A stretch of DNA of 63,857 nucleotides, filler included, from Reticulomyxa filosa (taxonomy: Eukaryota > Protista > Foraminifera), in assembly GCA_000512085.1 (NCBI GenBank). It is 13 parts of 13 records of this genome, joined end to end, with 100 filler letters (N's around TTAATTAATTAA, not from the genome) between each part and the next. Parts side by side here need not be neighbours in the genome. Positions count along the whole stretch, not along the records: positions 13,251 to 16,984 come from ASPP01013841.1; 12 more parts are not named here. One strand, 5' to 3'. Below the pieces are notes generated by a model. That model ran no database searches, was not told where the DNA came from, and saw only the letters and a program-made list of their open reading frames with translations. A program made the translations under genes and the position numbers. Below, piece after piece: positions 9,985 through 57,897 of this stretch. Position 1 is the stretch's first letter; the number at the start of each line of letters is the position of its first letter.

Positions 9985-11575
9985 TTATCTCTTTTCTTCT
10001 TCATCGTCTTCGTTTTCAACCTCTTTGAGCCTCTCACCCAAAGCAAATTGTTTGGCATTTTCAAACTCTTCAAATCTTCTAATTTTTTCAGGAGTAACTG
10101 CCCAAAACTCTGTGGCGACATTTGCCAAGAAATATTGGTCATGGGAAATCAGTAAGACGCCTCCATGGAAGGCTTTGATTGCTTCTGTTAAACTGTCAAT
10201 TGTCTCCATATCCAAATGGTTAGTAGGTTCATCCATGATAAGGAAATGAGGCATAGACCACGTCGCAACGCAAAAAGCGACTCTTGATTTTTGTCCTCCG
10301 CTCAAATATTTCATTTCTTGAGTGTGTTGTTGCCCAGTCAATTGGAATCGTCCCAATTGTCGACGAACATATTGTACCTGTGTAATATAACGATGCAAAC
10401 GACAAGAAGCAATGTTTATTATTATGACAAATATAACAACAGCAATAGCAATAGCAATAGCAATAATAATAACAAAAAGCAGAAAAGCAAAACACAAAAC
10501 TTTGTCTTTTTCTCTTTTTAACAAGTCATCATCGGCAAAACGCTCACAAATAAATTCGATAGCGGATTGTTCTAGATTCAATTGGTCCATGTGATATTGA
10601 GTGAAAAGTGCAATTCTCGCCTGTCGATTTCGCAAGCACTCGCCCTCCAAAGGCTGCACTTTATCCATGATCAACTTGACCAAAGTACTTTTGCCCACCC
10701 CATTGGCCCCAATCATGCCAATGCGACTGTCCATGTCTAATTGGAAGGTTACATTTTTCAAGAGCATGTGATCCATGTTGGGATATTTGAATTGGACATT
10801 GGTCATGCGACAGACGTAGTCCTCCAATCTGCCGACGTCAGGAAACTCAAACTTCAAAGCCTTGCCAGCGAGAGGGGGTTCTAGGAGTTCAGCTTCGGCT
10901 TCCATTTTTTCCAAAATCTTGCGTTTGGACGCGACGGCAGCAGCCATGTTGACACCTTTTAATTAACAAAAGTATGCATTATATAAATATATTTACATAT
11001 AAATAATATATGTGTATGTATACGATTTCTTTTTTGTATTGTTATAAAAAAAAAAAAAAAAAAATATATATAAAATTATATAATGTAATATCCAACCTTT
11101 ATCTTTATACTTTTCAATCCAAGCTTTGATTTCTTTGATCTGTTTTTTCAAGGCCTCATATTCGGTGACTTGTTCTGTCAATTGCATCTGACTTGTTTTC
11201 AACATGGTTTCGTAGTTGCCACGAAAGTAGAGCAGTTTCTTTTGGGTCAAGTGAATGGTGTGGGTGCAAACGGCGTTCAAAAACTCTCGGTCGTGGGAGA
11301 CCACGATGACTGTTTTGGTGTAGTTGTTTAAATAGTTTTGCAGCCACAACACCGTGGGGAAATCCAAGTGATTCGTGGGTTCGTCCAGCAACATCAAGTC
11401 CGGTTCTACAAACAGTGCCTTCGCCAGTTTCACACGCATTTGCCAGCCACCGCTCAAGTCCCTCGTCGCCTTTTGTGACATTTCTTTCGTGAACCCTAGA
11501 CCTGTCAAAATCGTCATCGCCTTCCGTTCTGACTGGTCGTAGTTCAAGTCCTCACGCGTTTCCCATATTATGCTA
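9985..11575 (-). CDS. ABC-F family (GCN20/ABCF3-like) ATPase, 5'-truncated by the contig end
   Basis: LSGGWQMRVKLAKALFVEPDLMLLDEPTNHLD and VVSHDREFL in the first ABC domain, then the linker, then GANGVGKST, LSGGQKSRVAF, MDEPTNHLD and ISHD in the second. No transmembrane domain once intron 10378-10500 is removed. Confidence 0.93.
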
Positions 11576-11614
11576 TTCACAGCACAATTTTTTATTTTCA
11601 AGTGTGGTTCACCC

Positions 11615-11714
11615 NNNNNNNNNNNNNNNNNNNNNNNNNNNNNNNNNNNNNNNNNNNNTTAATTAATTAANNNNNNNNNNNNNNNNNNNNNNNNNNNNNN
11701 NNNNNNNNNNNNNN
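11615..11714. other. Artificial contig spacer N44-TTAATTAATTAA-N44. Identical copies at 13151, 16985, 19301, 34583, 38325, 45425, 48196, 50151, 54270, 55419 and 62728.
   Basis: Twelve identical 100-bp blocks, each with stop codons in all six frames. Confidence 0.98.
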
Positions 11715-11758
11715 TATATATATATACACATATATAAATAGCAGCAAACTGCAAAACT

Positions 11759-12920
11759 TTTTCAGTATCAGGGGTAACGTCTTGCAAGCTCAATCTTTGG
11801 CGAGGCTTTGGTTTGGAAAAGATAAACGGGAGTTCATCGGAATATTTATCGCTATGACGATTGGATTGCTGTGTTCTCTCGAGATCCATTGTCGTTTTCA
11901 TTTTACGAAATTCTGGGATCGGATCATCTGTTTCGGAAAAGCTGATTTCAATTTTCTTTGGGGCTCGTGGATGCGATTGTGACTTGGACTGTAGTTTCAA
12001 TTGTGGTTTCTTTTTCGCTTCTTCTTCCCCTTCATCATCATCATCATCATCATTATTATTATTATCATTATTATTATTATTATTATCTTCTTCTTCTTCT
12101 TCTTCTTCTTCGTCGTCGTCGTCATAGGCGTAGTTGTAGTTATGATTAGCATATTTCTTTTCTTCTTCCTTTGACTTTTCGACTAAATCTGCTTGTTCCA
12201 TGATCTGCACCTGCTTCTTTGGCTTGACCGACTTGGACTCTGTCTCCGTGGTGGTGTTCGGTTGCTCTTCGTGGTCGGGGTTCAGTTCCAACTCGCTCTC
12301 GGCATTGTCATCGTCGTCTTCATCGTTGTGATGATTCTTGTCGTGCTGCTGACTGCTATTGCTGGGAAGACGCGAGTGCTGTTTGCCAGGGGGGTCACTA
12401 TTTCGAGGAGTATTAGAAAAAGGATACTGCGAGACGCGCTCTTTGCCGTAGACCAGTTTGGAATAGCCTTGTGGGAAAAATGAATGCTTCTGCTTTTCAT
12501 TCGTTTGCATGCGATGCACGGCAATTTCTTGCGACACCATCAGATCCACGCGCATTTCCTGTGCCATCTTTTGCGTCTCCTCCACCGTATGCGTATCGAC
12601 AGCGGTGGTCAAATTCACCAATTGTGATTTCATGGCTGATATTTCTTGTTGCAGTATCAACTGATCTTCGTCCATTTCGCCCGCGGATCCTATCATGTCC
12701 ATCAATGATGTAGCGTCGTGCTCCGACATTGGCTCGTCCTTCCCCGTTCGCAACAATCCGATCATCCCCGCCTTTTCGCGACTTATTCGACTGTTCTTCT
12801 TCGAATGCAAAGGCTGGTCTTTTCCATTCGACTCGTCGCTCTCCTCGTCCGCCTCGTCGCCACTGTCGTCGTCCAATACGTCACGATTCCCCGTCGTTCC
12901 GGATGTCTTCGTCTCGCCTT

Positions 12921-12977
<57 letters not shown>

Positions 12978-13041
12978 GGTTCGCTGTCATTTGGTTCATT
13001 ACCTCTTGTCGGATCTGCTGACTCATTTCATCTTCTTGCTG
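11759..13041 (-). CDS. Large low-complexity acidic exon, possibly the 3' continuation of the poly-RPEL gene
   Basis: Open for about 430 codons between an AG acceptor (about 13042) and a GT donor (about 11758). Contains Thr, Asp, Glu and Asn runs. Linkage across the spacer is inferred only. Confidence 0.55.
12921..12977. repeat. (GTC)n/(GTTGTC)n microsatellite encoding poly-Thr
   Basis: Directly visible. Other coding hexamer repeats are (ATTATG)n at about 16540-16590 (NH repeats) and (CCAATT)n at 22651-22686 (PI repeats). Confidence 0.9.
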
Positions 13042-13393
13042 TTAGGTTTTACACACAAATACAAATACATAGTTTATGCTCATTGTTATATCCCTTCTCC
13101 CCCTTTGTTCATATCTCATTGTGTTTCGTAACATGGTGCAAAAAAAAAAANNNNNNNNNNNNNNNNNNNNNNNNNNNNNNNNNNNNNNNNNNNNTTAATT
13201 AATTAANNNNNNNNNNNNNNNNNNNNNNNNNNNNNNNNNNNNNNNNNNNNTTATTATTATTATTATTATTATTATTATTGTTTAGAACAGTTGCATGCAA
13301 AACAAACATAAATTCAAATACAAATTCAAATACAAATTCAAATACAAATTCAAATACAAATACAAATACAATTGCTAGTATTATACAATGTAC

Positions 13394-16300
13394 CTCTTGC
13401 CTCGATTCGGCTAGCATCTCTGTGACTTGTTGATGACTTGTGATGAATGCCTTGGACTGGTCGTGCTGGGCTTGCGCGACGTGGAATTGGCGCAGCTGTT
13501 CCAACTTTGGACGTTTGAGCATGCTCGTGTCCAGCTCTTTGACAAGTGACTGCCGTCGCGTGCGTTTGAAGTGTTCAGCCTCTTGGACATCTTCGAAAGC
13601 TCCGTGCGGCACAATGCCTTTTTCTTGGAGCCAATGCTGACTCGGACGATGTTTCGAGTCAAGCTTTTTGTTTAAGATGTATTTTTTGTTAAGCTTCTCA
13701 AGTTCTTGTTGTTGTTCGGCGACCAGAGCATCGTGTCGCGCAAACTCCCTTGGAATAAGTCCCCTCTCCGTCATGGTCATTTTCGAAGGTCGCAGAGACA
13801 AGCGATGGTTCAAATGGTCCCTGGCCGAGGACGGGTCCACGGACGAATCTTCAATTTCCTTTTGGACAATGCCTTTACGTATCAAAAAGTCTTCTGGAGG
13901 TCTCTCTTCCAAGCCCTCTTGCAATTCGCGTGCGACGGCATGCAGGCCAGAGGACAGTCCATGTTCGCTGTTGACAGGATAGTATAGATATCCCGAGTCG
14001 ACCATGTCTTGGGCGTCTCTTCGCATCGCCAATTGAAATTTCAGGTGATGTTCCAATGTGTGTCTTTCGAGGTCCGCTTTGGCCGAGGCATTGGCCATCG
14101 CATCTTTTGTTGGATCAAACGACTTTCGCATAATGTTTTTCTCTTGCAATTCCGAGTACTCGGGCCTGTTTTTCTTACTCAGCTTGTCTTCTAACATCGA
14201 CTTGGTTTGCGCTTGTGGCAAAGGCGGCTCTCCTTTTTTCGATGCCTTTTGTTCCAATCGTTCCAATTGTTCTTTAGCTTCGTCATATTGCTTTTTTTAT
14301 TTTTTTAAATCAATTAAAAATTTTTAAAAAAATTTATATATAAATTTTTTTTTAAAGTTGAAATTGACAAAACTAAAGCTTTTTCTAAAAGTCCTTTTGC
14401 GACCATTCTAGAGTATTCAGGCCTTTTGGCCAAATGTGCTGTCAAGTCTGCGACGACAGATATCCTCCGTCGTTGCTGTGTGGCCATCGCTTGCTCTGCG
14501 CTGGCAAAGTAGCCCTGAGGCACGACTCCTCGCAACTCCAGATCCATCATGGTTGGCCTTCTTTCACGCTTCAATTGGCTTTGCAATTGGTCTTTGATTT
14601 GATTTTTCCTCAAGACGATACTGTTGTCATTGTCATCATTGTCATCATTGTCGTCGTCGTCGTCAATGGACTTGGCCACGACATCTTTTTGCTGCTCCGA
14701 TAAACTGTCGTTTGCATTCATGTGCAAAATACCCATTGCTCGGATATCGTCAATCGACTTACGACGTTTCAGCTTGTCTTGCAATGTGTTGGCATTGTTT
14801 TGGATCGCCGGTGCCATTTCGGAGGAAAACAATATTTGCTTACTCACCAAATCTTTTTGAGTAGGCCGTTTCATTATTCGATCTTCCAACTCGGCCACCC
14901 TCTGCATTTCATATTCCAAGTCTATGTCCAACTCCTCATCTTCCTTCGTTGTCTCCAGTTTTTTTCCTCCTTTGCTGTGTTCGGGTCCAGTTTGTCCACT
15001 ATCCCTTCTGCTACTACGCCCACGTAGTCTGGTCTTTCCAGTAATTTTTGTTCCAGTTCTTGAATTATGCTTTCTTTTCTGCGATGACCGGAACGGACTT
15101 CTTTAGCCTTTTTTTTTTTCCCCCCCCCCACACCATATTAAACTAATTATAATCAAATAATAATAAAAAAAAATGTATTTGTTTAATGAAACAGTGCAAA
15201 GACCCGTGTTGCAAAGTATCCTTGCGGGACCACTCCAATGGTTTCCAATTTTTGAAAGGGGTTGTACAATTCTTTGAGCTGCTGCGACAAAGAACGAACG
15301 GTCCCTTGTCGCAAAGCTCTGACAGCCTCATCGGCCATGTGTTTGTCCATTTGCAGGTACTCTTCCCTGGTCAGCCCCCTTTGGACCAATTCTCTGGGCG
15401 TCGCGCGGTTCACCATGCGTTGCTTTAGATCTTCTTTCGCCAAGCGCATGCGAATTTCCTTCAGCTCGACAGCAGACTCGGAGTCCTCAAAGTAATCTCC
15501 TTCGGAGGGGATCACATTGCGTTGCTGCAGTACCTGTGGAGTGGCTCGTAATGACAGTCGCCTTTCGAGTTTATTGATGACATTGGCTCGTTTTGCAGGA
15601 AACTCCTACGTATACAATTATGTGATTATATACATATATGCATATATGTATATATGTATATATATATATTGTTTACCTCATAATCATCATTCACACGCAT
15701 GGGTGAAATGGCATCAATGTTGATATTGAACACGACGGCTTGAAGGAATTCGTCGTTTTCCAGCAAAAAAAGAACGCCCTTGCAACTGCTTTTGCAGAAC
15801 GCCGGCGATGCCTTGCAACGCATTATCCAAGTCCAGCCGGGCAGGTAACACTCCTTTCTTTTGGAGATAATGCTCCGTCACGCGCTCTTTCAAGCGCTCC
15901 TGCAACGTTTGCGCGGGCGCGTGCAGCGCCGGGGCGAGACGCTCGCTCAACGCAATGCCGTCATCGACCAGATTTTGATAGTCTTTTCGTCCCGTCAATG
16001 CCTGGTTCAATTTGAAACTCATGTGTTTCCGACTCACCGCTTTGGCCGCCCCGACAATCGATGGAGCCAGTTCGTTTTTGAATCCGCTGTCTCGAGCAGT
16101 CCTGCGATTGTTTGAGGAGGAGACGTGTTCTGTATTTTGTTGTTGAATTCGAGTTTCCAGTGCTTCTGCTTGAGGTTGAAGTGAGTCAGCCTTTATTATT
16201 ATTATTATTGTATGTTGTATGTTGTTGATGTTTGATATATATATTTTGTACACCTTTTTTTTTTTTTCTAAACTAAAGAGACCCTTCGAACTAATCCCAA

Positions 16301-16867
16301 TATTTCCATCTGTTGTTTTGCCATTCGATTTTCAATGCGATCTTCCAACTCAGTTGCAGCAGGTTGCAATCCTCTTGCAATGTGAGCGTTTTTGAACACC
16401 CCCTTTTGTCCCAGTTCACTGATACTTTGCCTGTTTTTTAGCAATTTCTCCACGGCCATTGATTGACGTCGCCGTTTGCCATCCTCATCAATATTTGTTA
16501 CGTCGTTGTTGTTCATTTCAATATCGTTGTTGAAACTGTAATTATGATTATGATTATGATTATGATTATGATTATGATTGTGATTGTGATTTGGGTTTCT
16601 ACAATTGGGCTCGTGACACAACGTGACATCCGGGTAAATCTCTTCCACATGCTTCATAATCACTTCGGCAAACTCTTGCGCTCTTTCATTGGGAAATGGC
16701 ATCTGATCTTTCAAATCGCCCACTGCGCTGGAAAATCGACTGTGTTGCGAAGCCATTTGCTTCAATTGGCTGAAAATCGCCTCGTCGTTTTCGCTTGCAT
16801 TGGCCATTGGCGCCGAGTGTTCATTCGGACGCTCTCCTTCTTCTTTTGCCACAGCCACTTCCTCCAA
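13394..16867 (-). CDS. Poly-RPEL (G-actin-binding) repeat protein with about 17-18 RPEL-like motifs; partial, multi-exon
   Basis: Repeated L..(K/R)L..RP...L..(K/R)G(I/V)(I/L/V) motifs, e.g. LERRLSLRATPQVLQQRNVIP, LEQKLLERPDYVGVVAEGIV, LEDRIMKRPTQKDLVSKQIL, RPTMMDLELRGVVP, RPEYSELQEKNIM, LEERPPEDFLIRKGIV, LSLRPSKMTMTERGLIP, RPSQHWLQEKGIVP. Confidence 0.85.
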
Positions 16868-17084
16868 TTTGCTCTATCGTGTGGAATCAACACCCTTTGT
16901 GCGTGTGTATGTTTGTGACAGTGATATTGGACTCCATCGGACCAAACATATATGACACATGTGACAAGGAGACGAGAACAGGGGNNNNNNNNNNNNNNNN
17001 NNNNNNNNNNNNNNNNNNNNNNNNNNNNTTAATTAATTAANNNNNNNNNNNNNNNNNNNNNNNNNNNNNNNNNNNNNNNNNNNN

Positions 17085-19400: not shown

Positions 19401-22400
19401 CAGTCAATCCGGACGAACTTGTTGTCTCTGGCCAAACGCAAACCCAAGAAAAGGACAAAGATAAATCAAAAGAGGAACACAAACAGAGTAAGAGGGAGCA
19501 TCAAAGAAGTAAAGACAAATCAAAGAAACATAAGAAATCCAAAGACAAACCAATCAGCGAAGAAAGAAAAAAAGTCTTGGAGGCTTTTCAAAAGTTACCA
19601 TTTTTAATGAATAGAAGTGAAGGGCACGAAAAGAAAAAAATTACACATAAATGCACATACACACATATACATATATTGTATATAGGAACCCAGAACGATT
19701 TATGGAAGAAAACAAAGAACATTACATGAAACAAGTATTGTCACTATTGCGAGAAATGTTCACTCAAGAAGCAACCGAAAATGGAGTGGACCCCACGACA
19801 TTGGATTTGGAAACAATGGCGACGAATGGAATGCGCCAAGTGGTTGCAAGTGGTCGATTGTTCGAAATAGTTGCAGAGATAATTTTGAGAGAAGACGACA
19901 ACGATAAACCCAATTTGAACACCAATCAGCAGATATTGGAAAGCGTGTTGAGCGATTCCAAATTGCCACCTTGGATAAAAGAAGAAATGTACGTGGAGGA
20001 AATGTTATGCATCAACAACAAGTGCAGCAGCAAAGATTCGAACAAGAATATGGTGGAAAGCCGAAAACCAATGCGCCTTCGATGCGTGGTCTTTTCCAGT
20101 CTTCGAGCTTCGCCCAGCAACAACAAAAGCCTCATCGCTCTCCTCCAAAAGGTAAATTTATTCGAGTTCCAGTTACTCCTTTGATCTCCGATCCGAACAT
20201 TGAGAAAAACGCTCTTTCAACAGGAAATGGTATGTATGAACACAGATACAATTTGTGTTATTGATTATTGTTATCATTTTTATGTTTTGTTGCAATTATG
20301 TAAGACCATTTTTTAATGGTTTGTACGCCAATAGATTCGATCATGGCACAACTGTTTTTGGCTTCTCAATGGGCTGGACTCAAATTGTTGTGCTATCAAT
20401 GTTTATCGTGGACTCCACCCGACAATGTGAGTCTTCTTCTCTTTCTCTTTTTAACAATAAAATAAAAAAATGAACTTATAATGTGTATGTGTATGTTCAT
20501 TTCCATTTCTTATGTGGATACATTACACAGACACGAAACGCCAATGCACAAAAAACATCGAATACGACACTTACCAAAGTTCGCATTGATCACACCCACC
20601 GATTCATTGCACAGTCGTTGTTGAACTTGTTGAAAACAATATTGAATAGCATGTCTCGGTATGTGTGCTGTGTGTTATATGTGTGTGCTCTTTTGTTTCG
20701 AATAAGCATAAACAAATGCAATGTGGTCTGATTCAACACGTACAAATGCGTTAGCAATGGCCATTCCTACACGGATCGCGTAATATCAAAAAAGTGCAAT
20801 GCTTCTGTCCGAAGCATTTTTTCGTTGTTTGTGACATTTGGAAACGGCAGTTTGTCCAGTGAAGAGAAGAAGACATTATTCCCATTGGTTTTGCATGTCA
20901 TTTTCAATTGGGAAAAGTTTACATTTGACGTATTCCAATTGGCGATGAAGCTGTCACGTCGACTTGTGACCTGGATTGAGCCCACGTTAGTCAATGTGCC
21001 CGTGTTGGACAAAACGGGTCCGATAAACCCGTCCTCGATTGTGAAGCGATGGATCGAGTTGATTGGAGAGATTACGCACCGCAAGGCAGAAACCCCATCG
21101 AAAGAGGAGATTGCCTCCAATATGGTTGTGTCTCAATTCACGCAGGCCTCTATTCGCAAGGCCTCGTCGATCGTATCGTCTGTCCTGCCCATCGACGAAG
21201 ACAACGCCATTGCTCAAGCGATTGCCGAAAGTACCGCGATCGCCACAGCTGAAAACAAGGCCGGAGATAAGATCGAAGACAAAGTCGGAGACAAGGAGCA
21301 AACCAAAAAATCCAAAAAATCGAAACGTCGCAGCAGCTTGCTGTTGCAATCCGCAGCCGCGACAGTCGCACAAGCACTGCCGACCCGACGATTTTGTGTA
21401 GTGGCCCAAGGACAAGAGAGCAGCAAAGTGTGGAAAGAGGTGCTATTGTCACCCGAGTTTGAATTTTTGTTGCCAGAAGACAAAGACGGGGGAATGCATT
21501 ACTGTGACACGGACGAGGAAGAGTGGACCGAAGAGGATACAGATACGGATGATCCACTCCGAGGAGGCATTCCTACGCCCAGTCTTTTGGATCTATTGTT
21601 AGAAAATCCCGAGTTGCAAAGGATCGCCGCGGAATTGGAAAGGGAAAAAGAAAAAGCCCCAATGGCGCCTTCCTTGTCGCAATTGGGAAAAAAACCAGAA
21701 ACAGCCCCTCCCCCTTTACCAGTAAAACCACCTTCTGAGGCCGGCGCAGAGCCAAAGAAATCAGAACAAAAGGAAGAGAGAGACGACGAAAAAAGCCAGA
21801 GTCGAAGAAATTGATCATTGCAGACGAACCAATTCCTCCGACGTCACAGTCACAACAGGCGCCAATGGCTTCGAAATTAGACGAAAAACAGTTGCAACAG
21901 CGCTTGGACGATCTGAAGAAAGCGCTCCCGGAGAAAAAGAAAACTTTAGAAGACGAAAAAGAAGAGGTAATTAAAAAAGTTCGAACCACGGTTTTATTGC
22001 GATATCAAAAGGAAATGCGAGAAAAGAGAAGAAAAGAAGAGGCGGAAAAGCAACGACAAGTCCAAGGAAAGCTAAAACGCAGAGAAATGCGATTGCAACG
22101 AAAAGCGAATGCAATTTCACAAAATCAAAAGCTAAGCAAAAAAGAATGGGCAGAAAAAAGTCGAAGAGGATATCAATTGCGACAACAATTTATTGTTGAT
22201 TGGAAGTCAGTCGAGCCTTTGGCAAAAGCCAAAAAGCAGCTCCGAGATTTCCAACACAAACAAAAAAAGGAGGAAAAGAAAAATTTTATTGATGGAAAGC
22301 TTGCCGAAATTGAACAGCAAACCAAAGAAGAAACCGAAAGGGAAATTGAACGATTGGTTGCCGCACAATCTGCTTCCGGATCCACCGAACCAAAAAATGT

Positions 22401-25400
22401 AGTTATGTTTTCAAACATACACATATACATATATAATATATGTATATGTATACATATTTACACGTGCGTGTGCCAAAAAAAAATGGTATTGTTGTCAACA
22501 GATAAGTGAGATCAATGCGATAACAGTTTCAAAACCGGAAGAGAAAAAGAAAAAGACACAAATGATAACAATGCAACGGCACCAATGCCACCAGCACCAA
22601 TGCCACCAGCACCCTTACCTCGTCCACAAGAGCAAGCCCCGCTTCCAGCGCCAATTCCAATTCCAATTCCAATTCCAATTCCAATTGCAACGTCAACTCC
22701 TGCTGAACACGAAAACCAAAAGGAAAAGGAGGAGAAAGAGCCGATTCAGAAACCACGGACGCTGTTAGCCAAAGTCGTGACGGTCGATCCCAAAAACATG
22801 TTACGAGTGGTAAAAGACAAATTAGGGGTGGTCAAATCCGAAAGGGGTTGGACGTTGGACTGTCGCAACGGCTTTGCCACAGCGATTTGCAACTATGGCT
22901 TTTCTTCGGGACGGTGGTATTACGAAGTGTACCTCGACACCCCAGGCCTGAAGCAACTTGGCTGGGTGACACCAAATATCGATTTCAGTCCGGAAGGCCA
23001 AGGAACAGGCGACGATGCATATTCGTGGGCGTACGACGGCTTCCGTCGTCGCAAATGGCATCGCAAAGACGAGGCGTGGACCACCACCAAGTGGCAACAA
23101 GGAGACGTTGTGGGCTGCGCAGTGGATTGCTATCGCAAAGAAATGAGGTTTTATTTGAATGGAGTGGATTTGGGCGTCGCATTTACCAACGTTCGAAGCA
23201 AAGATGGTATATTCCCTTCGCTGACATTGCAAAAAGGAGAAAAGTGTACATTCATTTGCGATATGAACCACTTTTATTTCCCAATCCCTCAAGGCTATGC
23301 ACCTTTGATCGGCGACGACGCCAGATTGCCCTATGCGCTTCGAGCGCGATTGACCGCGGTCAATATCACGGAAATGATCCAACAGCAAGGTTTGTACGTA
23401 CTCTTCCCGCAAGGCGATTTTGAAAAGTGCTGTCGATTAGCCCAGGAGTTTTCGCGACTGGGCGCGGCCGTAAGTGTGCTGCCGCGCTCCTATGTTCCGG
23501 CCTTGACAATGAGTGGGACAGAACCCAATGTGAGTTCGGAAAAAAATACCATGAACAATCAGACCCAGCTCATCTTTAGTGGCAATGCCACCAGAAGCGT
23601 CGTGAGTGAAATTGTGGCGCTGCTGCGATGGCTCTTGCAACGTCCGCAAGACAATGCGGCCTCCAATGATAATACCAGCAGTGGCAGTCGCATGAAAAAA
23701 TCCATGTCCACACCCAGTTTCCACCAAGCCACCGCTAATGCCAATATAAATCTCACTGTCAATGAAAATCTGTCTGTAGAAGGCCATAGCAACAGCGATG
23801 GCCTGACCTTCCCCACGCAAATGGCAAAGAGCACCAGCATTATCTCGGCGATTAGTGAAACATCGCGGTAAGTGCAATGACTGGAACATACAGTTTGGAT
23901 TGGCAGCAGATTGCATTGAATGTGTTGGTTCAAACCTTGAAGGTATGTTCCCCCTTTCTCATTGGAATTTCCCTATGATTATATTATTACATCACACACA
24001 CATACACGATAAATGACCATTGGATTGCGTTCTTGTAACTATTACCAATGATAGAGTGTAAACACCAAAGACGATTTTGCAGGATTCACCGGTGCGCTGT
24101 GCGTGCTGGGAGGATTCCGCGAACCATTGCGCTGTGGCGGCTTTGTTCGTGTCGAGGCTGGCAGTGGCAAGAAGAGCTCAACAGAGACCGCAGTTGTGGT
24201 GAAAGCACCACCCTTCCATGATCGATTGCATGTCGTGTTTCACAAGAAACGAGACGTGATATGCAACACAACCAGCACCATTCGCATCAACGCTAAAAAT
24301 GTTACGCCGGTCAGCGAATTCTTGCCTATTTTTAACCTTTTGAGCGAAAATCCGGAAATATTTGACACGCTGGTGGACATTGTTCGCTGTGATCCATCGT
24401 TCGCAGTATTGTCTTCTCCGGAACAACCCTGGCTGAATCTGTTGCACTCCAGTCGCAACCCAAGAACATTACCAATGTTAACAAGTTCTATCACTTTGCC
24501 TGCTGAAACTCCACTCGCGTATGTTTTGACGCAAAAAAACGAAAAATGACACAAAATTGATGGCAGAATTGAATAGGCAAATGAATCGAAATAAATGAAT
24601 AAATAAATGGAATAAAACAAAACAAAACAAAAAAAAGCATAAGAAACTTAGTTGCAATGATATGCATATGTATGTGTGTGTATATGTATGCGGATCAATT
24701 TACAGAAAAAGTGACGACGAACTCAAAGAGTTGCATGAAGAAAAAACTCCTTTACCAATACCATCTCCAGAAAGCAAGAAAGAAAAGAAGAATGGCGAAG
24801 ACTCGAGTAACAGCAGTCTAGAGCTATCTGCGATATTGAGTGAGCTTCGATATCGAGCAATGGGTGTCGTGGAATCGCTGTTGTCATCGTCTCAGTTGGG
24901 CAGCTTGAGTCCGCAATTGATCGACAAAGCCGTGCGTCTATTGTTGGAAAACGCAGTAATGAACAACACACGACGAAGCAAATTGCCCAGTGCCGATGTG
25001 GAAGACACCATGTTACAAGCACTCCTCTTGCAAGATCGTTTGTGGGAAATTGAAAACCTGATGCTCCCTTGCTTTGTGCAAACACCCTTGGCGCCAATGC
25101 AAATACTACACGAAAAAGATATGGACGACATGATGACGACGGAAAAAGCGGCTCAAAAAATATGGGTGCATTCGAGACCCTTGTATCAGTATGACAAAAT
25201 CGACACTGGTGACAACAAGAATAATTTGTTGCGTTATTATGATAAGCACATTTTACCGAGACTACAAGATCATTTGAAGAAGTATTTCCAGCCCTTTGAA
25301 ATAGCAGATTACACCATGCAATTCCGAAAGCCATTGCAAAGCGGCGACGAAATGACCCCGTTCCAAGTGGCATGGGTGCTGTGCAACAAGCGAGTACCCG

Positions 25401-28400
25401 ACGGAGTGACATTCCCAGACACGGATCGCGATTGGACTACATTGACAGTCGATGACATCCAGCCGGGACAGCATGTGTATGTTACCCCTTATGCCTTGAC
25501 TTCGCCGATGATACATACGCCGTACATGGAGAAATTTGTCGGCCAGGTGGGCCGAGTGCGTTCGACGGACAAAGATGCCGAGTGTGTATTAGTTCAGTTT
25601 TACGATGAGTCGGAAAGTAACACCAATGCATATTGGTTCGAGTCGAGAGTCCTTCGCAGTGCACGACCGTTTTATTACATGAGCAAGTTCAGTGGATGGC
25701 TGGAGAGATATCTCAGTCGCACCGAATGTCTGCAAGCACTCATCGAAATGCAAGAGAAAGCCGTGCTGTTGGCCTTGCAACGAGGGCTGTTCACTTTGTG
25801 TTGTCAGCCAGAGAATCCCTTGCCCCGATTAAAACGCATGTTTTTGGAGCTTCAGCAAAAGGACTACGATGGTGTGGAGGGAAAGAGGCCAGGCAATGAA
25901 GACGCCGTGCCCTCTGTGTCTACGGCCGCTATCAGCAGAGATCCAATCGATTTTGTACTTTCGGCATTGAAACAAGCGATTCGCTTGCGAGAATTGGATA
26001 TGTTGGGCGAGCCATTGTCTGAGAGTGAGGAGCACATTGAACAATTGAACCATAATTTGCAAGAGTATGCACAAAAAGAGGGATTGAGCGAAATTGACTT
26101 GATGACCAAATGGATGCAAAAGCTTGACTATCGTCTCAACGTTGCCGCGACTTTCTATCGGAAAAACGTTTTGTTCCGACATTCCCGTGAATGCGACAGC
26201 AAATTACGAGGATACTCCAAAGCGGTATCCGTGTCAGGTGCATGCGCCCTTGTCATTGTCTTTAGCAAAGAGTCCGAGTTGCCAACGTCACAATATTCAA
26301 GTTAGCCTTTTTTTTTTTCTTTTGTCAGACAAAATAGTATCTTATTGATTGATAAGATGTATTTATTTATTTGTTTGCTTGTTTGTTGTTTGTCTTTAGC
26401 TCACAGCGTAGCGATTTATTCAGATGAAACGTGCCAATCACTTGTGAAAATGTATTCGGCAGGCCAAAAAGCAAAAGACGTCTTGTTGCCTGTTGTGGTG
26501 CCAGTCACGAATGTTGGGTCAAATTGTCTTATCCCGAAATATGCCCATTGATTGAGTTTGAGGTGGTGCCCATCCATCCCGACTTGGGATTGTCCTTTTG
26601 GTTGGTACGCTTTTTGTTGCAGTCGGTGACCATGAAGCCTTGCGCAGAGTCTTTGGAGCTGCTTCACAACATCCAAATGTGCGTGCGAATGATTCAATTA
26701 CTATGCGACCATTGGCAGCTGTTGACCTTGCAAATGTCTCCGCTGAAGCAGGCCTTGTTCACATTGATGTTCCAAATCCTTTCGACGATTAACGTGTTGG
26801 TGAAAGAGCATCGATCCAATCTGATGACTGTCGATATTCAAGATGTGATCGACAAAGGGTTGGAAGTGCTAAAGGAGTTGAATACGGAAGCACAAAAGAT
26901 GTTCGAGGTTGAAAGCAAGGGCGAAGTGACGACCTACTTCCAATTGCTCATGGACATGATGGTATTGGCGGACAAACTGCGCTCTTCTTCCTGCAAGCAA
27001 GTATCGAAAGTGTCATTTGGCATTGGCGGAGTAAGCGATGAAGAGGAGGAGGACAAAGAGGACGCCACCGAAAGTGACACCGTCACCGAGTGGGATTGTC
27101 CGGCATGCACATTGAAAAACCCTTTTGCCGAAGACAAGTGTGGGCTGTGTGGGGCCAGTCGTCCACCGCTCAAGCCCAAAGCCAAACGCGATACCAAAGG
27201 AATGAACGCCAACAAGCTTTTACAGCAATTGATCGGCTTGTCATCGGCGATCGAGTATTTCAAGAACATTGACAAATCGAACAAGTTTGCCACCGAGACG
27301 CTGTTCAAAGGAGCGTGGAATATCTTAAAGCAAGAGGACGACCCCACCAAGCAATGGTTTTTGATTAGCAATGTCCCTCCAGGCCCCGACGATAAGGTAA
27401 TAGATCTCCTTCGTCACTGCGTGTCGCGCATCGAGTCGGACAACCGAGTATCGATCAGTCACATTTATTTGGGAACAGACCCGCAGGCCAAGAAGCCGAT
27501 CACTCGTAAAAGGAAATTTGTGCAAAAGTATATCCCCTCGGATCCAAATCTCAAGGAGTGGGGAGAAAAAGGCATTGTCCATTTCATCGCCACCAATGGC
27601 AAGGCCCGAGCATGGAAGAACCCAATGGACGATGGACTGGTGCAAGTTCGAGTCAAAGGCTTGGCCCTGGGCAGCAGTCCGGCCAACAGCATTGTCAGTA
27701 ATAAGTCCGTCCGTTGCATGACGAAGTCGGAGCTGCACAGTTACGTTGTCGTTGACTTTGGCGAACGAAGAGTGTGTCCCTCATTTTACAAACTGCGACA
27801 CTACTCGTTCACCGATCGCGATGCGTTGCGCTTCTGGAGATTGGAAGGGTGTGCCGAAAACTGCTACTCGCAGTGGGCTGTAGGCGCATCGGCGACAGCG
27901 GATATCGACAGTGATAGCAAATGGGAGGTGTTGTGCGAACACAGCAATGACGAGTTGCTGAAGAAAGCTGGGGACATTGGCGGTTGGAAAATCGAGTCGA
28001 ATCAACCCAAACGGTTCTTCCACAAGTTCCGAGTGATTATCACCGGGGTGAATTCGAGCAACAATTTCGTCTTGGCTTTGTCCGGATTTGAGGTGTACGG
28101 ACACTTGGAAATGCCACCCACCGTCGCGCCGACCAAACAAAAGACTCATCGCTTTGCGGTTGTGGAGGTTGGCAATCCGAGCGTAGAGGTGTCCCAGGCC
28201 TTACTATCGATGAGTGGCATGGCAATCAAAGCGCCGTCGGGAACGGAACTCGAGTATGTGACGACGGAAAAAGAACCCCCGCTTCCTTCGCCTCGCCAAT
28301 TAAGCACACCAGCAGTGACGACCACCATTGGTATTCTCAATGCTGCGATCAAGACAACTCCGGAGCCTCCCAGGCTGGAAGATTTAATGGCCAATATTGT

Positions 28401-30680
28401 AATCCCGCCCAGCGAAGAAAGGTTCGTTGTTGATTCCATCGAAAGCGAATTGCAAGTGAAACGGTTCTCGGAACTGCCTGACGGACATATTCTCAAGGAT
28501 GTGTTTTTGAAAGACTTATTCCTGGTGTCCACTCAAAACGACAGAAACCAACACCGAGTACGCCCTTCCGGCGATTCCGGTCGAGAATTGAAAGACAAAT
28601 TGCAGGACCATTGGAGAGAACTGTTCCAGAAAAAATTAATTGGCGAAGGTCTGACGCGAGAAGAATTTGTCAAAATGATTAGTCCCACTGGCGAAGGCCA
28701 AGACTTGATTTTGTCGATTTGCGAGCAATTCGACATTCAGGACAATAGTCAACAGATATTGTGGGACCAATTCCACGACATTGTCGTCACTCTCATCAAA
28801 GTGAATCCAAAGATTGCTTTGAATTGGATCTTTGTCAATGGCTATGATCATCGTGGCTCCAGGAGGTTTGACAACAACTTTGACAACGCCTGGGCAGACC
28901 AAATGCATTCCAAGAAAAGGTAATTCGACAACATCCTCAAACGGACGCACTGCTACTCCGACACTGGAACGGTCTTGCCGAAAGCCTTGGCTTCAATTCC
29001 TTGCAGCAATTGAAACCTATTCATGTACGACACGTGTCCGAAGAGGAAGTGCAAAGCGATAGTCGATTGCGCGAACTTCTAAACCTGAAAGCGGAAATGC
29101 CAATTGAAACATTGCGATTGCGATTAAGTGCCTTTCAGATTTTAAACATGGTCATCAGCAAAACCTTAGCTTTTATTGATTTGTCGAGATATGAGATGCC
29201 GTCGTCTCTTGCGCATATGCTATGCATTGTTGGAGATGAGTACATTTTTACCAAAATGAAAACAGATTTCTTGCAAAATGTGATGGACGCCACGAGCGAG
29301 GCCGTCGAAAAAAAGCCGGTGGTGAGAATGAACAGAATGAGACTATTGAACAAATTGTCGACCGTCGGAACATTGGACTTTGCCACTGAATCCAACTTTG
29401 GATTTGGTTATCAGCAGTTGAGTCGAGTGGACGAGTCGCAACTACGTCCCCCCAAACCGCAAGGGGCAGATCCATTTGTGGCGTTTGTGTTGGACTTGAT
29501 TGGACAATTTGTGGAGGGTGATACCGGTCCGTATCGACAATACTTCAATGACGTCAGCAGCGAATTGCAGAGTCCGGAGTCGTATCTGTTCCAATTGACG
29601 CCCAACGGACGTAAGCCACAGCTGGATTTGATGAACAAGGACAAATATGTCATTCGTCCGTCACATCCCAATTTATTGCTTTCCGCAACTCAAGGCACGG
29701 AAGAGTCGAATGGAGGAATTGGTGGTGCTGATAAAACCAAGCAAGGCGTGCGCGAAGGCTTGAACATCCAATCCGCCAAAGATAGTGCCAATTTGAAAGA
29801 AGAGCAGTTTGGAATGTTTGAATTTTTGGGCAAGCTCATTGGCATGTGTTTGCGAACGGGAGTGAAGCTCAACTTGTCATTGCCTGCATTTTTCTGGAAG
29901 CCCTTGGTTGGGGTCAGCTGTGGACAGAGAGACCTGTATGAAATTGATACCACCTTATGCAAAGGATTGGAGGAAATTTGGAATTATCCCGTGGAAAGAA
30001 AACACGAATTTGAAAACGAAGTGAAAGAGACTTTCATGACAACACTGTCTGATATGACATTAGTGGAATTGAAACCCAATGGAAGCGACATCCCGGTCAC
30101 CTTTGAAAACCGTCGCGAATATGTTTCCTTGGTGTATCAAGTTCGATTAAATGAACACATGCCGCATGTGGAATGCATTCGTCAAGGAATTCACAAAATT
30201 GTTCCTATTCATCTGTTAACCTTGTTCACTTGGGAAGAGCTGGAAAGATTAATTTGTGGTATTCCAGATATTAACATTGATCTTCTCCGAAGACACACTA
30301 TTTATGACAAAGCCATTGATCCTAACAGCGAGTATATTGAATGGTTTTGGAAAATATTGCACGAGTTCTCACCCGAAAACAAACGCAAATTCATTCGATT
30401 TACATGGGCCCAAGAACGATTACCTAACAACGATGAAGAGTTTACAAGGCTGAGATTAAGATTTTTAATTAAACCTGTCATCAAGAGTGTGGCAAACATT
30501 GACCAGTCACTACCAAAGGCACATACATGCTTTTTCCATTTAGAATTGCCCAAGTACTCAACCAAAGAAATTATGAAAGAACGTCTATTACTGGCCATTA
30601 CAGAATCTCTTTCGATGAATGCTGACGAGCCTGGAAGAGATGATCTGAACCAAGCAATGCAAATAGAGGACGCATACTAA
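19401..30680 (+). CDS. Giant HECT E3 ubiquitin ligase with SPRY, RanBP2-type zinc finger and discoidin/F5-8C-like domains; 5'-truncated, multi-exon
   Basis: SPRY at about 22850-23310 (GRWYYEV..QLGW..GTGDDAYSWAYDG..WQQGDVVGC..FYLNG..LGVAF). ZnF EWDCPACTLKNPFAEDKCGLCG at about 27088-27155. Discoidin-like domain at about 27560-28110 (GIVHFIATNG..WKNP..VDFG..YKLRHY..LRFWRLEG). HECT at about 29400-30630 with GPYRQYF, FEFLGKLIG and LPKAHTCFFHLELPKYS (catalytic Cys at 30528). Confidence 0.92.
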
Positions 30681-48734: not shown

Positions 48735-48856
48735 ATACCACTGCTTTACTCAAAATATATTCAACTATTATAATATTTATTAAGCTTCTTCTAGTTAAAA
48801 AGTAATTTTTATATATAATGGGGATGATTTAAAAGAACAATTAACCAGAAAATATC

Positions 48857-49594
48857 ATGGATGAAGTTAATGTTATCTGTATGAAATGGGGAACTCTCTA
48901 TTCCCATGATTATGTGAATAATTTATATAATTCGGTCAAAAAAAATCTTAAAAAGCCATTTAAATTTATTTGTTTCACCGAAGATGCGACTAATATCGAC
49001 AAAGAAATCATAATTAAACCGTTACCTGAAGTTAATGTTCCGGATAAACACCAAGTTTCCCCATGGGAAAAATTAGGTGCTTACGCTAAAGACTTAGGTG
49101 GTCTTTCTGGAAAGACCATGTTTTTAGATTTGGATAATATCATAGTTGATAATATCGATTGCTTCTTTGATTTTTCTAATAAACTTTCCATAGTAGAGAA
49201 TTGGACACAAATTGGTAAGGGAATTGGCAATTCTACTGTCTTTGTTTTTGAAATAGGTAAATATTCTTTTCTATTAGATAACTTTAATAAAGATCCGATG
49301 AGTGTTATCGAGAAATATGACAATGAACAGATATATGTTTCTAAAACTTTAGGTAATGAATTAGTTTTTTATCCTGAAACATGGTGTAAAAGTTTTAAAA
49401 AGCATTGCCTAAGGGGAAAAAGATTTTTCAAATATTTTGTAGAACCTAAAATACCTTATAATGTTAAAATAATCGCCTTTCATGGACATCCTCGCCCTCA
49501 TGAAGCTCTAGAAGGTAAATGGCCTGGTACCATTATACCATATTTTAAAAAACCTAAGTGGTTGGCAAAGTATTGGGTTATAGCCAATGATTAA
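48857..49594 (+). CDS. Bacterial GT-A fold glycosyltransferase
   Basis: VICMKWGTLYSHDYVNNLY..FICFTED, DxD motif FLDLD, and IIAFHGHPRP. Intronless, and overlaps the start of the next gene as in an operon. Confidence 0.8.
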   Translation: MDEVNVICMKWGTLYSHDYVNNLYNSVKKNLKKPFKFICFTEDATNIDKEIIIKPLPEVNVPDKHQVSPWEKLGAYAKDLGGLSGKTMFLDLDNIIVDNIDCFFDFSNKLSIVENWTQIGKGIGNSTVFVFEIGKYSFLLDNFNKDPMSVIEKYDNEQIYVSKTLGNELVFYPETWCKSFKKHCLRGKRFFKYFVEPKIPYNVKIIAFHGHPRPHEALEGKWPGTIIPYFKKPKWLAKYWVIAND

Positions 49595-55418: not shown

Positions 55419-56277
55419 NNNNNNNNNNNNNNNNNNNNNNNNNNNNNNNNNNNNNNNNNNNNTTAATTAATTAANNNNNNNNNNNNNNNNNNNNNNNNNN
55501 NNNNNNNNNNNNNNNNNNTTTTTTACTATGTATAAATCAAAAAAAAATTTTAATTGTTTGTCCAAAGGAAAAACAAAGCGTGAAATTGAGTTGAAATCCA
55601 CTTATGACATGTATATCTTTTTTATTCTTTAAAAATAAAATAATTATTTGTGTGTTAGATATACTAAAAAACAAAAGAAGATGCAAATGTATTTGTTTTT
55701 TTTATAAAGAAAGAAAGTTGTAGAAGGGAAAAATGGTTAATGATGAAGAAAAAAAAAGGTGAAAAAAAAGATAAAAGAGATTATAAAAAAAGTTTATTGT
55801 TATGATTATGTAAAAAAAAGGATAAAAAGAATAAAAAATTGAAAGTTTATTTTTTATATTTTTTTTAACGTTGAAACTATACTCTAAGAATTGTGTATCC
55901 AGTGGATCTCAACAAAAAAAAATTTTGAATTTTTCTTTAGTGGTCATGTACATAGGTGGAACAATTCTTTGCTTTGATATTTATTTTTTTTAAATAAGAC
56001 GCAAGAAACCATGAATCAACAAAAAGTAATTTTTTTTTTGAGATGAGAAATTATGAACAATTCTTGCTTTTGGTTTCCGCAAAATTATATTCAAAATAAA
56101 TTCCACAAGACAATTTCATGGATAAGTTCATGCTTAAGTACAAATGGAATCTTTTTTTGAACCACAATTCAAATGTAAAAGAAGAGTTATTATTTACTTC
56201 AGACCACAAACTATCAAGAAAGTTTATAAATTTTTTGGGATGTTCACAAAAAAAAAAAGGAGAAATTTGAAATAACG

Positions 56278-57897
56278 ATGATGAAAACGGTAACCAAGAA
56301 CATCTCTTTATTCAAGAGTCTATACTGCAAACCAAACTACAGTCCCCTCTTCCTCCACTCTCTACGACAAAAGAGTCAGTACGATATTTTTTTGGAACAA
56401 CAACACGAAGGAAACGAACTTAAAAAAAAAATACAAGGGCGAAACGGGGCATTAGTAAAGACAGTGCCACCTCCACAATCTCGTAATGTAAGACTATTGA
56501 TTAAACAAATGACAACAATTGATGACATTATTGAATTCCTTCAAAATACTCCTTCTCAAGATACAAGTGTTTATACTGTAGCAATTAAAAGATGCTCTGA
56601 ATTAAAACAACCAAATGTATTTCCTCAAATTATACAATTAATTTATCAGCAAAATCTTCAATTGGATATTATTTTTTGTAATAATACTTTGCATTATTTG
56701 GGTATTTGGAATAAATTTGATCTTCAAAAAAAGCTATTTGAACAATGGTTCATTCATAAACAATTCACATCAAATACTATACCTTTTAATCCTGATGTAA
56801 TAACTATATCCACAATGATTAAAGGTTGTTCAAAAAAAGGTGATGTTAAACAAGCATTATATTATTTTCAATTATTAGTTAATGATTACAATCTTAAGCC
56901 AAATGGAATAACATGTAATACGATGTTATCAGTATGTGCAAATTCATGTGATATGGACAGTGCTGAAATAATTTGGAAGACAATGCAAAATGAGGCACAC
57001 ATTCAAATTGATGTTATTGCAATTACTTCAATGTTGAATGTATATGCACAATGTAGAGAATCAAAAAAGATGATGGATTTATTAAATTATTCGCAACAAC
57101 ATGAGCATTTTATTTCAATTAATGAAATAACATGTGCAACTATAATGTCAGGATTAATAAGAGATAATAAGATTGACGAAATGTTTGATTTTTATCAAAA
57201 TGAAATTCCAAAATTATCATTAAAAAATAATATTGATATAAATTGTAAAAGATTTATTAATTTAAAGAGTATTGGACATTTGAAAAAGATGGAAATGTTA
57301 AATGAAAATGAATCAGATAAACTATCATATCATCATCAACAATTTTTAAATATATTCTTTAATGAATTATATCCTAATACTAATAAAGCTTTAATTTCTA
57401 TTGATGAAAGAGATATGGAAAAATTGATATGTTCATATGTATTATTGCACAAAAAAGATTGGATAGATGCAGTACAAGATGTGGAAAGAATATTAGATCA
57501 AAAATCAAATTTTAGCCATTCTTTTAATTATTGGAGTATTGACATATTCAATAAACGACAACTATTATTAAATTTTAATTTAATGTCAGCAATATCAACA
57601 AATTTTTTTTTACGTTATTTGATGACATTCAAAAGAGATGAATTAAAATATGAATTCAAAAATGGTCCAATCAAGGTATTATGTGGAAAAGGTCAATATT
57701 CAAAAATAATTAAAAAAGGAGGAATTTGTGAATCTCCAAAAAAGAAAAGCATTGAAAATGAATTCAAAAAATGGAAGATTCCAATTCGTTTAGAACAAGA
57801 TCAGTTTAATCAAGCAGTGTGGTGTTTGAATCAAGATGATGTAACATTATTTTTTAAATTAGTTCCTCCTGGTGAAGATTGTTTGAAGTGGTGGTGA
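56278..57897 (+). CDS. Pentatricopeptide-repeat protein with a C-terminal SMR-like domain
   Basis: PPR motifs PDVITISTMIKGCSKKGDVKQALYYF, PNGITCNTMLSVCA, DVIAITSMLNVYAQ and NEITCATIMSGLI. The C-terminus LNFNLMS..FFLRY..IKVLCGKGQYS..NQAVWCL is SMR-like. The N-terminus is basic and presequence-like. Confidence 0.85.
   Translation: MMKTVTKNISLFKSLYCKPNYSPLFLHSLRQKSQYDIFLEQQHEGNELKKKIQGRNGALVKTVPPPQSRNVRLLIKQMTTIDDIIEFLQNTPSQDTSVYTVAIKRCSELKQPNVFPQIIQLIYQQNLQLDIIFCNNTLHYLGIWNKFDLQKKLFEQWFIHKQFTSNTIPFNPDVITISTMIKGCSKKGDVKQALYYFQLLVNDYNLKPNGITCNTMLSVCANSCDMDSAEIIWKTMQNEAHIQIDVIAITSMLNVYAQCRESKKMMDLLNYSQQHEHFISINEITCATIMSGLIRDNKIDEMFDFYQNEIPKLSLKNNIDINCKRFINLKSIGHLKKMEMLNENESDKLSYHHQQFLNIFFNELYPNTNKALISIDERDMEKLICSYVLLHKKDWIDAVQDVERILDQKSNFSHSFNYWSIDIFNKRQLLLNFNLMSAISTNFFLRYLMTFKRDELKYEFKNGPIKVLCGKGQYSKIIKKGGICESPKKKSIENEFKKWKIPIRLEQDQFNQAVWCLNQDDVTLFFKLVPPGEDCLKWW

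Follow-up and report, generated by a model that had tools for sequence, protein, structure and literature searches.

A long array of divergent RPEL motifs in Reticulomyxa filosa as part of a foraminiferal protein family and candidate G-actin reservoir

The stretch of DNA analysed in this study (the window) comprises 63,857 nucleotides from the foraminifer Reticulomyxa filosa (GenBank assembly GCA_000512085.1), in which 13 contigs are joined by twelve identical 100-base linkers (an N run, a 12-mer with stops in all frames and another N run); adjacency across these linkers does not mean genomic linkage. One contig of 3,734 bases (13251-16984) carries on its minus strand, from 16873 to 13394, five exons of a gene separated by four introns, and the coding part of about 1,049 codons holds no in-frame stop once two one-base shifts are allowed. 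The encoded protein is a long succession of repeats resembling the RPEL motif of animal actin-binding proteins, and both the identity of these repeats and the role that such an array might have are considered here.

RPEL motifs are reported to be unstructured alone and to cover the cleft and ledge of monomeric (G-) actin, and the contacts of MAL RPEL2 with actin are L118, I122, R125, L131, I136 and L137 (PMC2583105). With a contact pattern of positions -7, -3, 0 (the Arg), +6, +11 and +12, which tolerated as many as two additional residues ahead of the Arg and was drawn up after the sequence had been seen, 17 motifs possess the Arg, the cap residue and at least five of the six contacts, 14 of them with all six. 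Across 1000 shuffles, at least five contacts were reached by 0.53 motifs on average (maximum 4) and all six by 0.04 (maximum 1). Three of the 20 candidate motifs fail, namely motif 9, which is without the Arg, and motifs 3 and 6, which are degenerate, giving 17-18 motifs and 20 at most. This agrees with an earlier, sequence-only reading of this DNA, in which about 17-18 RPEL-like motifs had been counted across five exons.

A profile built from 19 window motifs only (A1) and run against 177,635 PDB sequences retrieved Phactr1 first (E 2e-12), then four MRTF-A chains (E 4e-10 to 2e-9), followed by designed PPR proteins with no passing stretch and then by single motifs of Phactr1, MAL and ArhGAP12. 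Since a profile holding nothing but window motifs retrieves Phactr1 and MRTF-A ahead of all else, the repeats are, as far as sequence can identify them, divergent RPEL motifs. Searched by itself, the downstream frame of exon 4 gave a single PDB match at E < 10, which was to MRTF-A including its spacer (E 0.25). With the Pfam RPEL model (PF02755), three single exon frames scored 21.5-22.6 bits, where the cut-off is 23, and the paralogues and orthologues described below passed with 30-83 bits. A scan with this model had been proposed as a check on the sequence-only reading, and few motifs do score, which taken literally is a refutation; the low scores are, however, more probably a reflection of divergence from the animal and fungal sequences behind the model than of the absence of RPEL. 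Most motifs also depart from the canonical RPxxxEL core, position +5 being acidic in 7 of the 20, and this lowers canonicity but not function, because MAL RPEL1 is without the Pro and binding does not require the Glu, the need for the Pro depending on context (PMC2583105).

The linkers between motifs form two classes. Those of the AP-x-LQ type give an Arg-to-Arg distance of 35-36 residues in five cases and 40 in a sixth, and those of the P-x-GYF type, which recur at least four times, give 45-48 residues. Linkers 7, 9, 13 and 19 are alike (z 5.7-10, with the exception of 7 against 9, z 3.8). The GVVPQGYF and GIVPHGAF spacers that had been picked out earlier do recur, the former twice (directly after motif 9 in exon 3, and after motif 13 in exon 4) and the latter once (after motif 19 in exon 5), and the higher-order repeat unit that they had been taken to imply is borne out: the protein consists of two kinds of two-motif cassette with acidic or variable stretches between. 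In alignments, the 35-residue linker matches the spacer that follows RPEL2 in MRTF-A, and in sequence it looks like an MRTF spacer shortened by nine residues.

The features of the gene are collected in Table 1. The introns have a GC content of 8-26%, and splicing of intron 1 gives back a 35-residue spacing in agreement with the paralogue P0002, while the intron 3 junction agrees with P0005, P0006 and P0032. The gene is open on both sides, with an acceptor before exon 1 and a donor after exon 5, and the contig cuts it at both ends; homologues extend further upstream with more motifs, the earlier exons lying off the contig. At frameshift 1, all four paralogues tested align straight across in the shifted frame; frameshift 2 was placed by frame logic, which is less exact, and its linker is unbroken in homologues. 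Five homopolymers of at least six bases are present in the exons, and because the two shifts coincide with the only ones that reach 7 bases, they are likely to be assembly or sequencing errors. Small introns in place of the shifts were rejected, as at frameshift 1 they would delete residues conserved in all four paralogues, and at frameshift 2 the candidates, judged by eye, are unlike the AT-rich introns. The contig at 11715-13150 was also rejected as a continuation of the gene, having no similarity to any long homologue. The adjoining contig also has an acidic, low-complexity frame of 460 codons (11659-13041, minus strand), which has no likeness to the RPEL family. The sequence-only reading had left out the two frameshifts, the longer full protein and the arrays of similar length in unrelated protists.

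Table 1. Exons, introns, frameshifts and RPEL motifs of the gene, in window coordinates
Feature	Position	Strand	Details
Exon 1 of preserved part	16274..16873	-	200 codons; 5' open, AG acceptor 16875-16874; conserved helical segment, Asn-His low-complexity tract, motifs 1 (16453-16394) and 2 (16348-16289)
Intron 1	16191..16273	-	83 nt, GT-AG, phase 0
Exon 2	15677..16190	-	Motifs 4 (16010-15951) and 5 (15905-15846); degenerate motifs 3 (16160-16101) and 6 (15797-15740)
Frameshift 1	15765..15771	-	7-base homopolymer, one extra base; within exon 2
Intron 2	15606..15676	-	71 nt, GT-AG, phase 0
Exon 3	15204..15605	-	Motifs 7 (15569-15510), 8 (15428-15369) and Arg-less 9 (15290-15228)
Intron 3	15108..15203	-	96 nt, GT-AG, phase 0
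Exon 4	14374..15107	-	Motifs 10 (15056-14997), 11 (14889-14830), 12 (14784-14725), 13 (14586-14521) and 14 (14445-14386); acidic linkers
Frameshift 2	14959..14965	-	7-base homopolymer, one base short; acidic linker between motifs 10 and 11, exon 4
Intron 4	14291..14373	-	83 nt, GT-AG, phase 0
Exon 5	13394..14290	-	Motifs 15 (14194-14129), 16 (14044-13985), 17 (13924-13865), 18 (13813-13754), 19 (13675-13610) and 20 (13534-13475); ends at GT donor
Further intron, start only	13251..13393	-	Runs off contig end

Among named records, those closest to the encoded protein all belong to Reticulomyxa filosa, with at least six partial paralogues in this species (P0001, P0002, P0006/P0003, P0024, P0032 and P0079), one of which had already been auto-annotated as 'RPEL repeat protein'. 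The survey for orthologues that had been suggested was successful, as collinear proteins are present in other foraminifera. P0005 of Elphidium margaritaceum (2,423 amino acids) is collinear over residues 30-1006 of the window protein (29%, E 8e-90), as are the ENA protein P0168 and P0169, P0171 and P0172 (2,647-2,698 amino acids), the last three of which are labelled Bolivina argentea and Nonionella stella and form one cluster with an uncertain species label. A test of best-match positions gave no clear answer, 11-13 of the 19 steps being increases, and collinearity is taken from the alignments. The orthologues, at 2,400-2,700 residues, are 2.3-2.6 times the length of the window part and hold around 30-38 motifs; with the window profile, 31 stretches reach 0 bits or more in P0005 and 37-38 in P0169/P0171, and 18 and 28-29, respectively, reach at least 5 bits, whereas the 19 matches of this profile in the window are circular, the profile having been built from it. 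Full-length relatives possess a short N-terminus, a variable tandem array, a fixed-order core and a conserved coiled-coil C-terminal domain of approximately 600 residues. The N-terminal array is homogeneous, with a length and a period that differ between members (period 44-46 residues in P0169, around 38-39 in P0002). Judged by alignment, the window part is the fixed-order core of this foraminiferal RPEL-array family. The 35-, 38- and 44-46-residue spacings are a natural series for how spacing sets cooperativity and stoichiometry. P0005 is a EukProt entry with an MMETSP identifier, which we take to denote a transcriptome collection, so the family is presumably expressed.

Other foraminiferal proteins with RPEL motifs were also observed, including P0014, an array whose C-terminal domain is distantly related to the one described below, P0019, which consists almost wholly of paired motifs at a 35-residue spacing and is missed by Pfam, and P0036, in which RPELs are mixed with coiled coils. 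A short pair of motifs is conserved at the N-terminus (residues 1-80) of P0005 and P0169/P0015; a possible likeness of the orthologue N-terminus to capping-protein-interaction proteins found no support in Pfam.

Matches to the C-terminal domain numbered 7 among 7,991 candidates of similar length and 3 among 7,981 longer ones, and all the named ones are foraminiferal. It is not encoded in the window, where tblastn with C-terminal-domain proteins returned nothing. P0006 (array) and P0003 (C-terminal domain) have an equal longest contig (26,372), as do P0001 (array) and P0162 (C-terminal domain; 11,755), and this therefore suggests that the pairs at these two Reticulomyxa loci are split annotations of whole genes. 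By homology, the window's own gene probably has a C-terminal domain as well, on another contig. An AlphaFold2 model from 11 sequences has long helices at 38-313 and a helical bundle at 364-592, with a mean predicted local distance difference test score (pLDDT) of 71.6 and a predicted template modelling score of 0.38. No Pfam family reached the cut-off in five proteins with this domain whole or nearly whole, ESM Atlas gave no usable match, and Foldseek gave none at E ≤ 0.001 with either C-terminal model, the last 230 residues not having been searched alone. A likeness of the model to the BAR/F-BAR fold amounts to E ≥ 0.078 in Foldseek (template modelling score about 0.14/0.28, root-mean-square deviation 22-24) and to Z 10.6 in VIA (deviation 6.2, 218 aligned), which is level with unrelated coiled coils, and VIA returned generic coiled-coil matches only.

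Conservation was counted in the 13 motifs that align cleanly (1, 2, 4, 5, 7, 8, 10-14, 16 and 17) with three distant foraminiferal orthologues, the other seven being degenerate, absent or gapped; as these orthologues are related to one another, the counts are not independent. Identity is 66% at contact positions (n=234) vs 31% at other motif positions (n=661), the RPEL Arg is retained in 32 of 39 cases compared with 60 of 176 for other Arg, and contact hydrophobics are retained in 180 of 186 compared with 335 of 501. The predicted actin-contact positions are therefore selectively conserved on this sample.

The RRxS sites that precede several motifs had been put forward as basophilic-kinase switches, and this holds in part. 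RRx[ST] occurs 7 times in the window protein vs 0.61 in shuffles and is also enriched in orthologue cores (5 and 6), and four of the nine basic-basic-x-S/T sites sit within the motif itself. One of the four named sites keeps both the basic pair and the Ser in all three distant orthologues, two keep the Ser in a weaker basic context (S519 and S999, with one upstream Arg or none), and the fourth loses it (S723, Asn in all three); the basic pair is retained in all three at S138 and at the Ser before motif 4. In MRTF-A, a phosphomimic of S98, an ERK site, is reported to lower the stoichiometry by about one actin (PMC4963197), and some Ser sites before motifs may similarly tune actin release. In the three distant orthologues, the stretch that separates the C-terminal domain from the last RPEL has a conserved PP[VI]PxR sequence with an RRGS-type site before it (P0005 1782, P0168 1186, P0169 2067). 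We take PP[VI]PxR to be like an SH3-domain ligand; it was not found in P0003 or P0162.

The interpretation that we favour, with a probability of roughly 0.5, is that this giant foraminiferal RPEL-array protein acts as an anchored, multivalent reservoir of G-actin that is releasable and non-polymerising. It is favoured because the proteins have at least 30 sites and an N-terminal array that expands, and lack a known effector; RPEL is the only family above the Pfam cut-off in all five long relatives scanned, and therefore no known effector domain competes with a bulk-binding role. Most of the intact motifs probably do bind G-actin. Each would fold on binding and cover the cleft between subdomains 1 and 3 and the ledge of subdomain 3, as in MAL, and a monomer bound in this way would be kept out of filaments. 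Many weak sites would amount to a high-capacity buffer from which monomers are released where free actin drops, and the C-terminal domain may oligomerise or tether the chain. The 3:1 MAL complex is reported to sequester actin in a non-filament arrangement (PMC2583105), and the Phactr3 repeats to inhibit actin polymerisation (PMC2626280), so that of the roles first proposed for the array, storage or sensing fits the known action of RPEL domains and nucleation is disfavoured. Granule traffic and dynamic meshworks of F-actin are described for foraminifera (PMC6410838), and their actins as distinct paralogues (bioRxiv 10.1101/064030).

A predicted complex with actin, another of the checks proposed, lends weak support. 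In ESMFold2, run without alignments on motifs 4-6 (102 residues) with two stand-in conventional actins from a metagenome contig, the value was 0.59 (runs 0.59, 0.34 and 0.66) vs 0.01 for the best of three controls, with run agreement of at least 54% of contacts and a partner pLDDT of at least 54. Of 78 solved complexes, 51 reach the mark, as do 2 of 108 mismatches, but passing values of 0.60 or less include only 5 of the 78 solved complexes, yet all 4 passing mismatches (of 180). The pass may reflect the model's memory of solved RPEL-actin complexes.

Several observations weigh against the reservoir, or against the canonical nature of its sites. PF02755 reports 5 of the 20 motif windows, at 14-20.5 bits, and none at the 23-bit whole-protein cut-off, and a canonical hidden Markov model (41 motifs from 31 proteins, with 83 of 161 proteins left out as foraminiferal or similar to those) gives 3 window motifs of at least 5 bits and 8 of at least 0 (shuffle maxima 0 and 2). 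The RP dipeptide is present in 9 of the 20 motifs and missing in 11, with motifs 4, 5, 12 and 16 among those that both lack the Pro and go unreported by Pfam, and loss of the Pro in MAL RPEL2 is reported to cost 16-fold, with myocardin as an instance of RPEL-like motifs that may bind weakly (PMC2583105). The Arg is absent at motif 9 in all five homologues aligned there and gone at motifs 2 and 10 in all three distant orthologues, from which motif 18 is missing altogether; since such Arg losses are conserved, not every copy binds canonically. Furthermore, the window copy carries two frameshifts, a C-terminal domain is ascribed to it by homology, and a fixed order with position-specific linkers over deep divergence exceeds the needs of a simple sponge.

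This last point is what would be expected if the protein were instead a G-actin sensor, in which actin bound to the core would change the shape, whereabouts or partners of the C-terminal domain, in the manner of MRTF, Phactr and ArhGAP12, and the array would sharpen the response and not store actin. The characterised RPEL proteins are all described as sensors linked with an effector (PMC2583105, PMC7599070), the order of the core, the linker classes and even the Arg-less copies are kept across foraminifera with a conserved domain directly after, and phosphorylation of the MRTF-A spacer lowers actin stoichiometry (PMC4963197). Yet no catalytic or known effector domain is detected by Pfam, no strict RVxF is present in the five C-terminal-domain proteins, and at least 30 motifs with a freely expanding N-terminal array go beyond what known sensors use, and we regard a sensor as possible but doubtful. 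The same conserved Arg losses, together with the weak canonical-model scores, could also mean that few copies still bind actin and that the others associate with one another or with a different partner in a mostly structural, RPEL-derived helical repeat; this is improbable, given that the conserved residues are the actin-contact positions, with both helices and the Arg, in most copies.

An actin-templating scaffold, in which the 35-residue cassettes align monomers as a nucleus or feed filament ends, has its model in the tandem-WH2 nucleators. The spacing is indeed shorter than the 38 residues of Phactr1 and the 44 of the MRTF-A chains, and foraminifera do form dynamic F-actin meshworks (PMC6410838), but the non-filament arrangement of the MAL complex and the inhibition of polymerisation by Phactr3 repeats (PMC2583105, PMC2626280) make such a scaffold hardly probable. 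Lastly, the two frameshifts and the several Reticulomyxa filosa paralogues could point to a recent pseudogene of the family, which is very improbable for a copy whose shifts are confined to its only two 7-base homopolymers and which keeps its splice sites and a coding part free of in-frame stops over some 1,049 codons.

A bolder and rather unlikely extension of the reservoir is a dedicated actin-storage chain of 270-300 kDa, carrying at least 30 monomers, bundled or tethered by a lineage-specific coiled-coil domain, travelling along reticulopods and unloaded by phosphorylation at pseudopods or chamber scaffolds. If true, giant cells would have a new means of shipping actin, and thymosin-type buffers a polymeric counterpart. 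In any case, the family offers a concrete, expressible molecule for the supply of actin in pseudopod remodelling and chamber building in foraminifera.

Elsewhere in the window, other genes were observed. Frames at 9985-11658 (minus strand) are, by eye, like an ABC-F protein with two ATPase domains, SPRY, zinc-finger and HECT ligase regions can be made out by eye in a long multi-exon gene at 20732-30680 (plus strand), and a 555-codon frame at 56230-57897 (plus strand) has PPR-like repeats, also by eye. An intron-free, low-GC frame of 249 codons at 48845-49594 (minus strand) has the appearance of a bacterial-type glycosyltransferase, and its contig (48296-50150) may be a contaminant or a transfer.

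Animal RPEL proteins have one to four motifs. MRTF-A/MAL (PF02755; PDB 2yjf, 2yje, 2v51, 2v52) shares with the window protein the same motif and contact positions, a spacer like the AP-x-LQ linker and, with the N-terminal array of the relatives, a 44-46-residue spacing; it has three motifs, compared with 17-18 in the window and around 30-38 in full-length relatives, the 35-residue core linkers appear nine residues shorter than its spacer, and no SAP or other transcription-cofactor domain is found by Pfam in the five long relatives, whereas the myocardin/MRTF family combines three RPELs with SAP, SRF-binding and transactivation regions. Phactr1-4 (PDB 4b1z), the best PDB match of the window profile, have close-packed tandem motifs comparable to the 38-39-residue arrays of P0002, and the family has a C-terminal triple RPEL with an RVxF tail after it, but the strict RVxF that docks PP1 is lacking in P0005, P0168, P0169, P0003 and P0162, and the relatives have far more motifs and a domain of approximately 600 residues after the last. 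ArhGAP12 (PDB 6gvc) has a single RPEL motif with a weak match (E 0.21); the relatives, unlike it, have no RhoGAP match and are multivalent.

Outside animals, fungal RPEL proteins are reported to have 2-3 motifs (bioRxiv 10.64898/2026.05.25.727616). A survey of 1.84 billion representatives gave 816 matches at E ≤ 0.001, and among the best 150 of these, 18 have at least 10 matched stretches and 8 at least 15; 8 of the 18 are labelled foraminiferal and one belongs to the stramenopile Chrysoparadoxa australica, with EF-hands. Arrays of 15-23 motifs unrelated to the foraminiferal family occur in other protists, so array length alone is not unique, and RPEL arrays recur in protist databases. Such proteins (e.g. 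CAM9195659.1 of Chrysoparadoxa australica, with EF-hands, and P0013) resemble the foraminiferal ones in having long or medium arrays, but the P-x-GYF linker is present in none of the six tested and they have no match to the foraminiferal C-terminal domain; by sequence they would be independent expansions. P0008, P0011, P0025, P0081 and P0018 are separate arrays of 10-17 stretches with a period of about 38 residues and interleaved EF-hands, and this family, of which one member is from Chrysoparadoxa australica, is a possible calcium-regulated actin binder. P0013 combines an ADF/cofilin domain with six canonical RPEL motifs.

A literature search, with most subscription journals outside its reach, returned no paper on RPEL in Reticulomyxa, in foraminifera or in protist domain architectures, and whilst the motif is known, a giant conserved array family appears to be undescribed. 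The known RPEL proteins are low-copy animal actin sensors, and with ten times the motifs, and without a known effector, this family would be the earliest candidate for a use of RPEL in bulk storage. What sets it apart from the other systems is a conserved core of fixed order, with its own linker and C-terminal domain.

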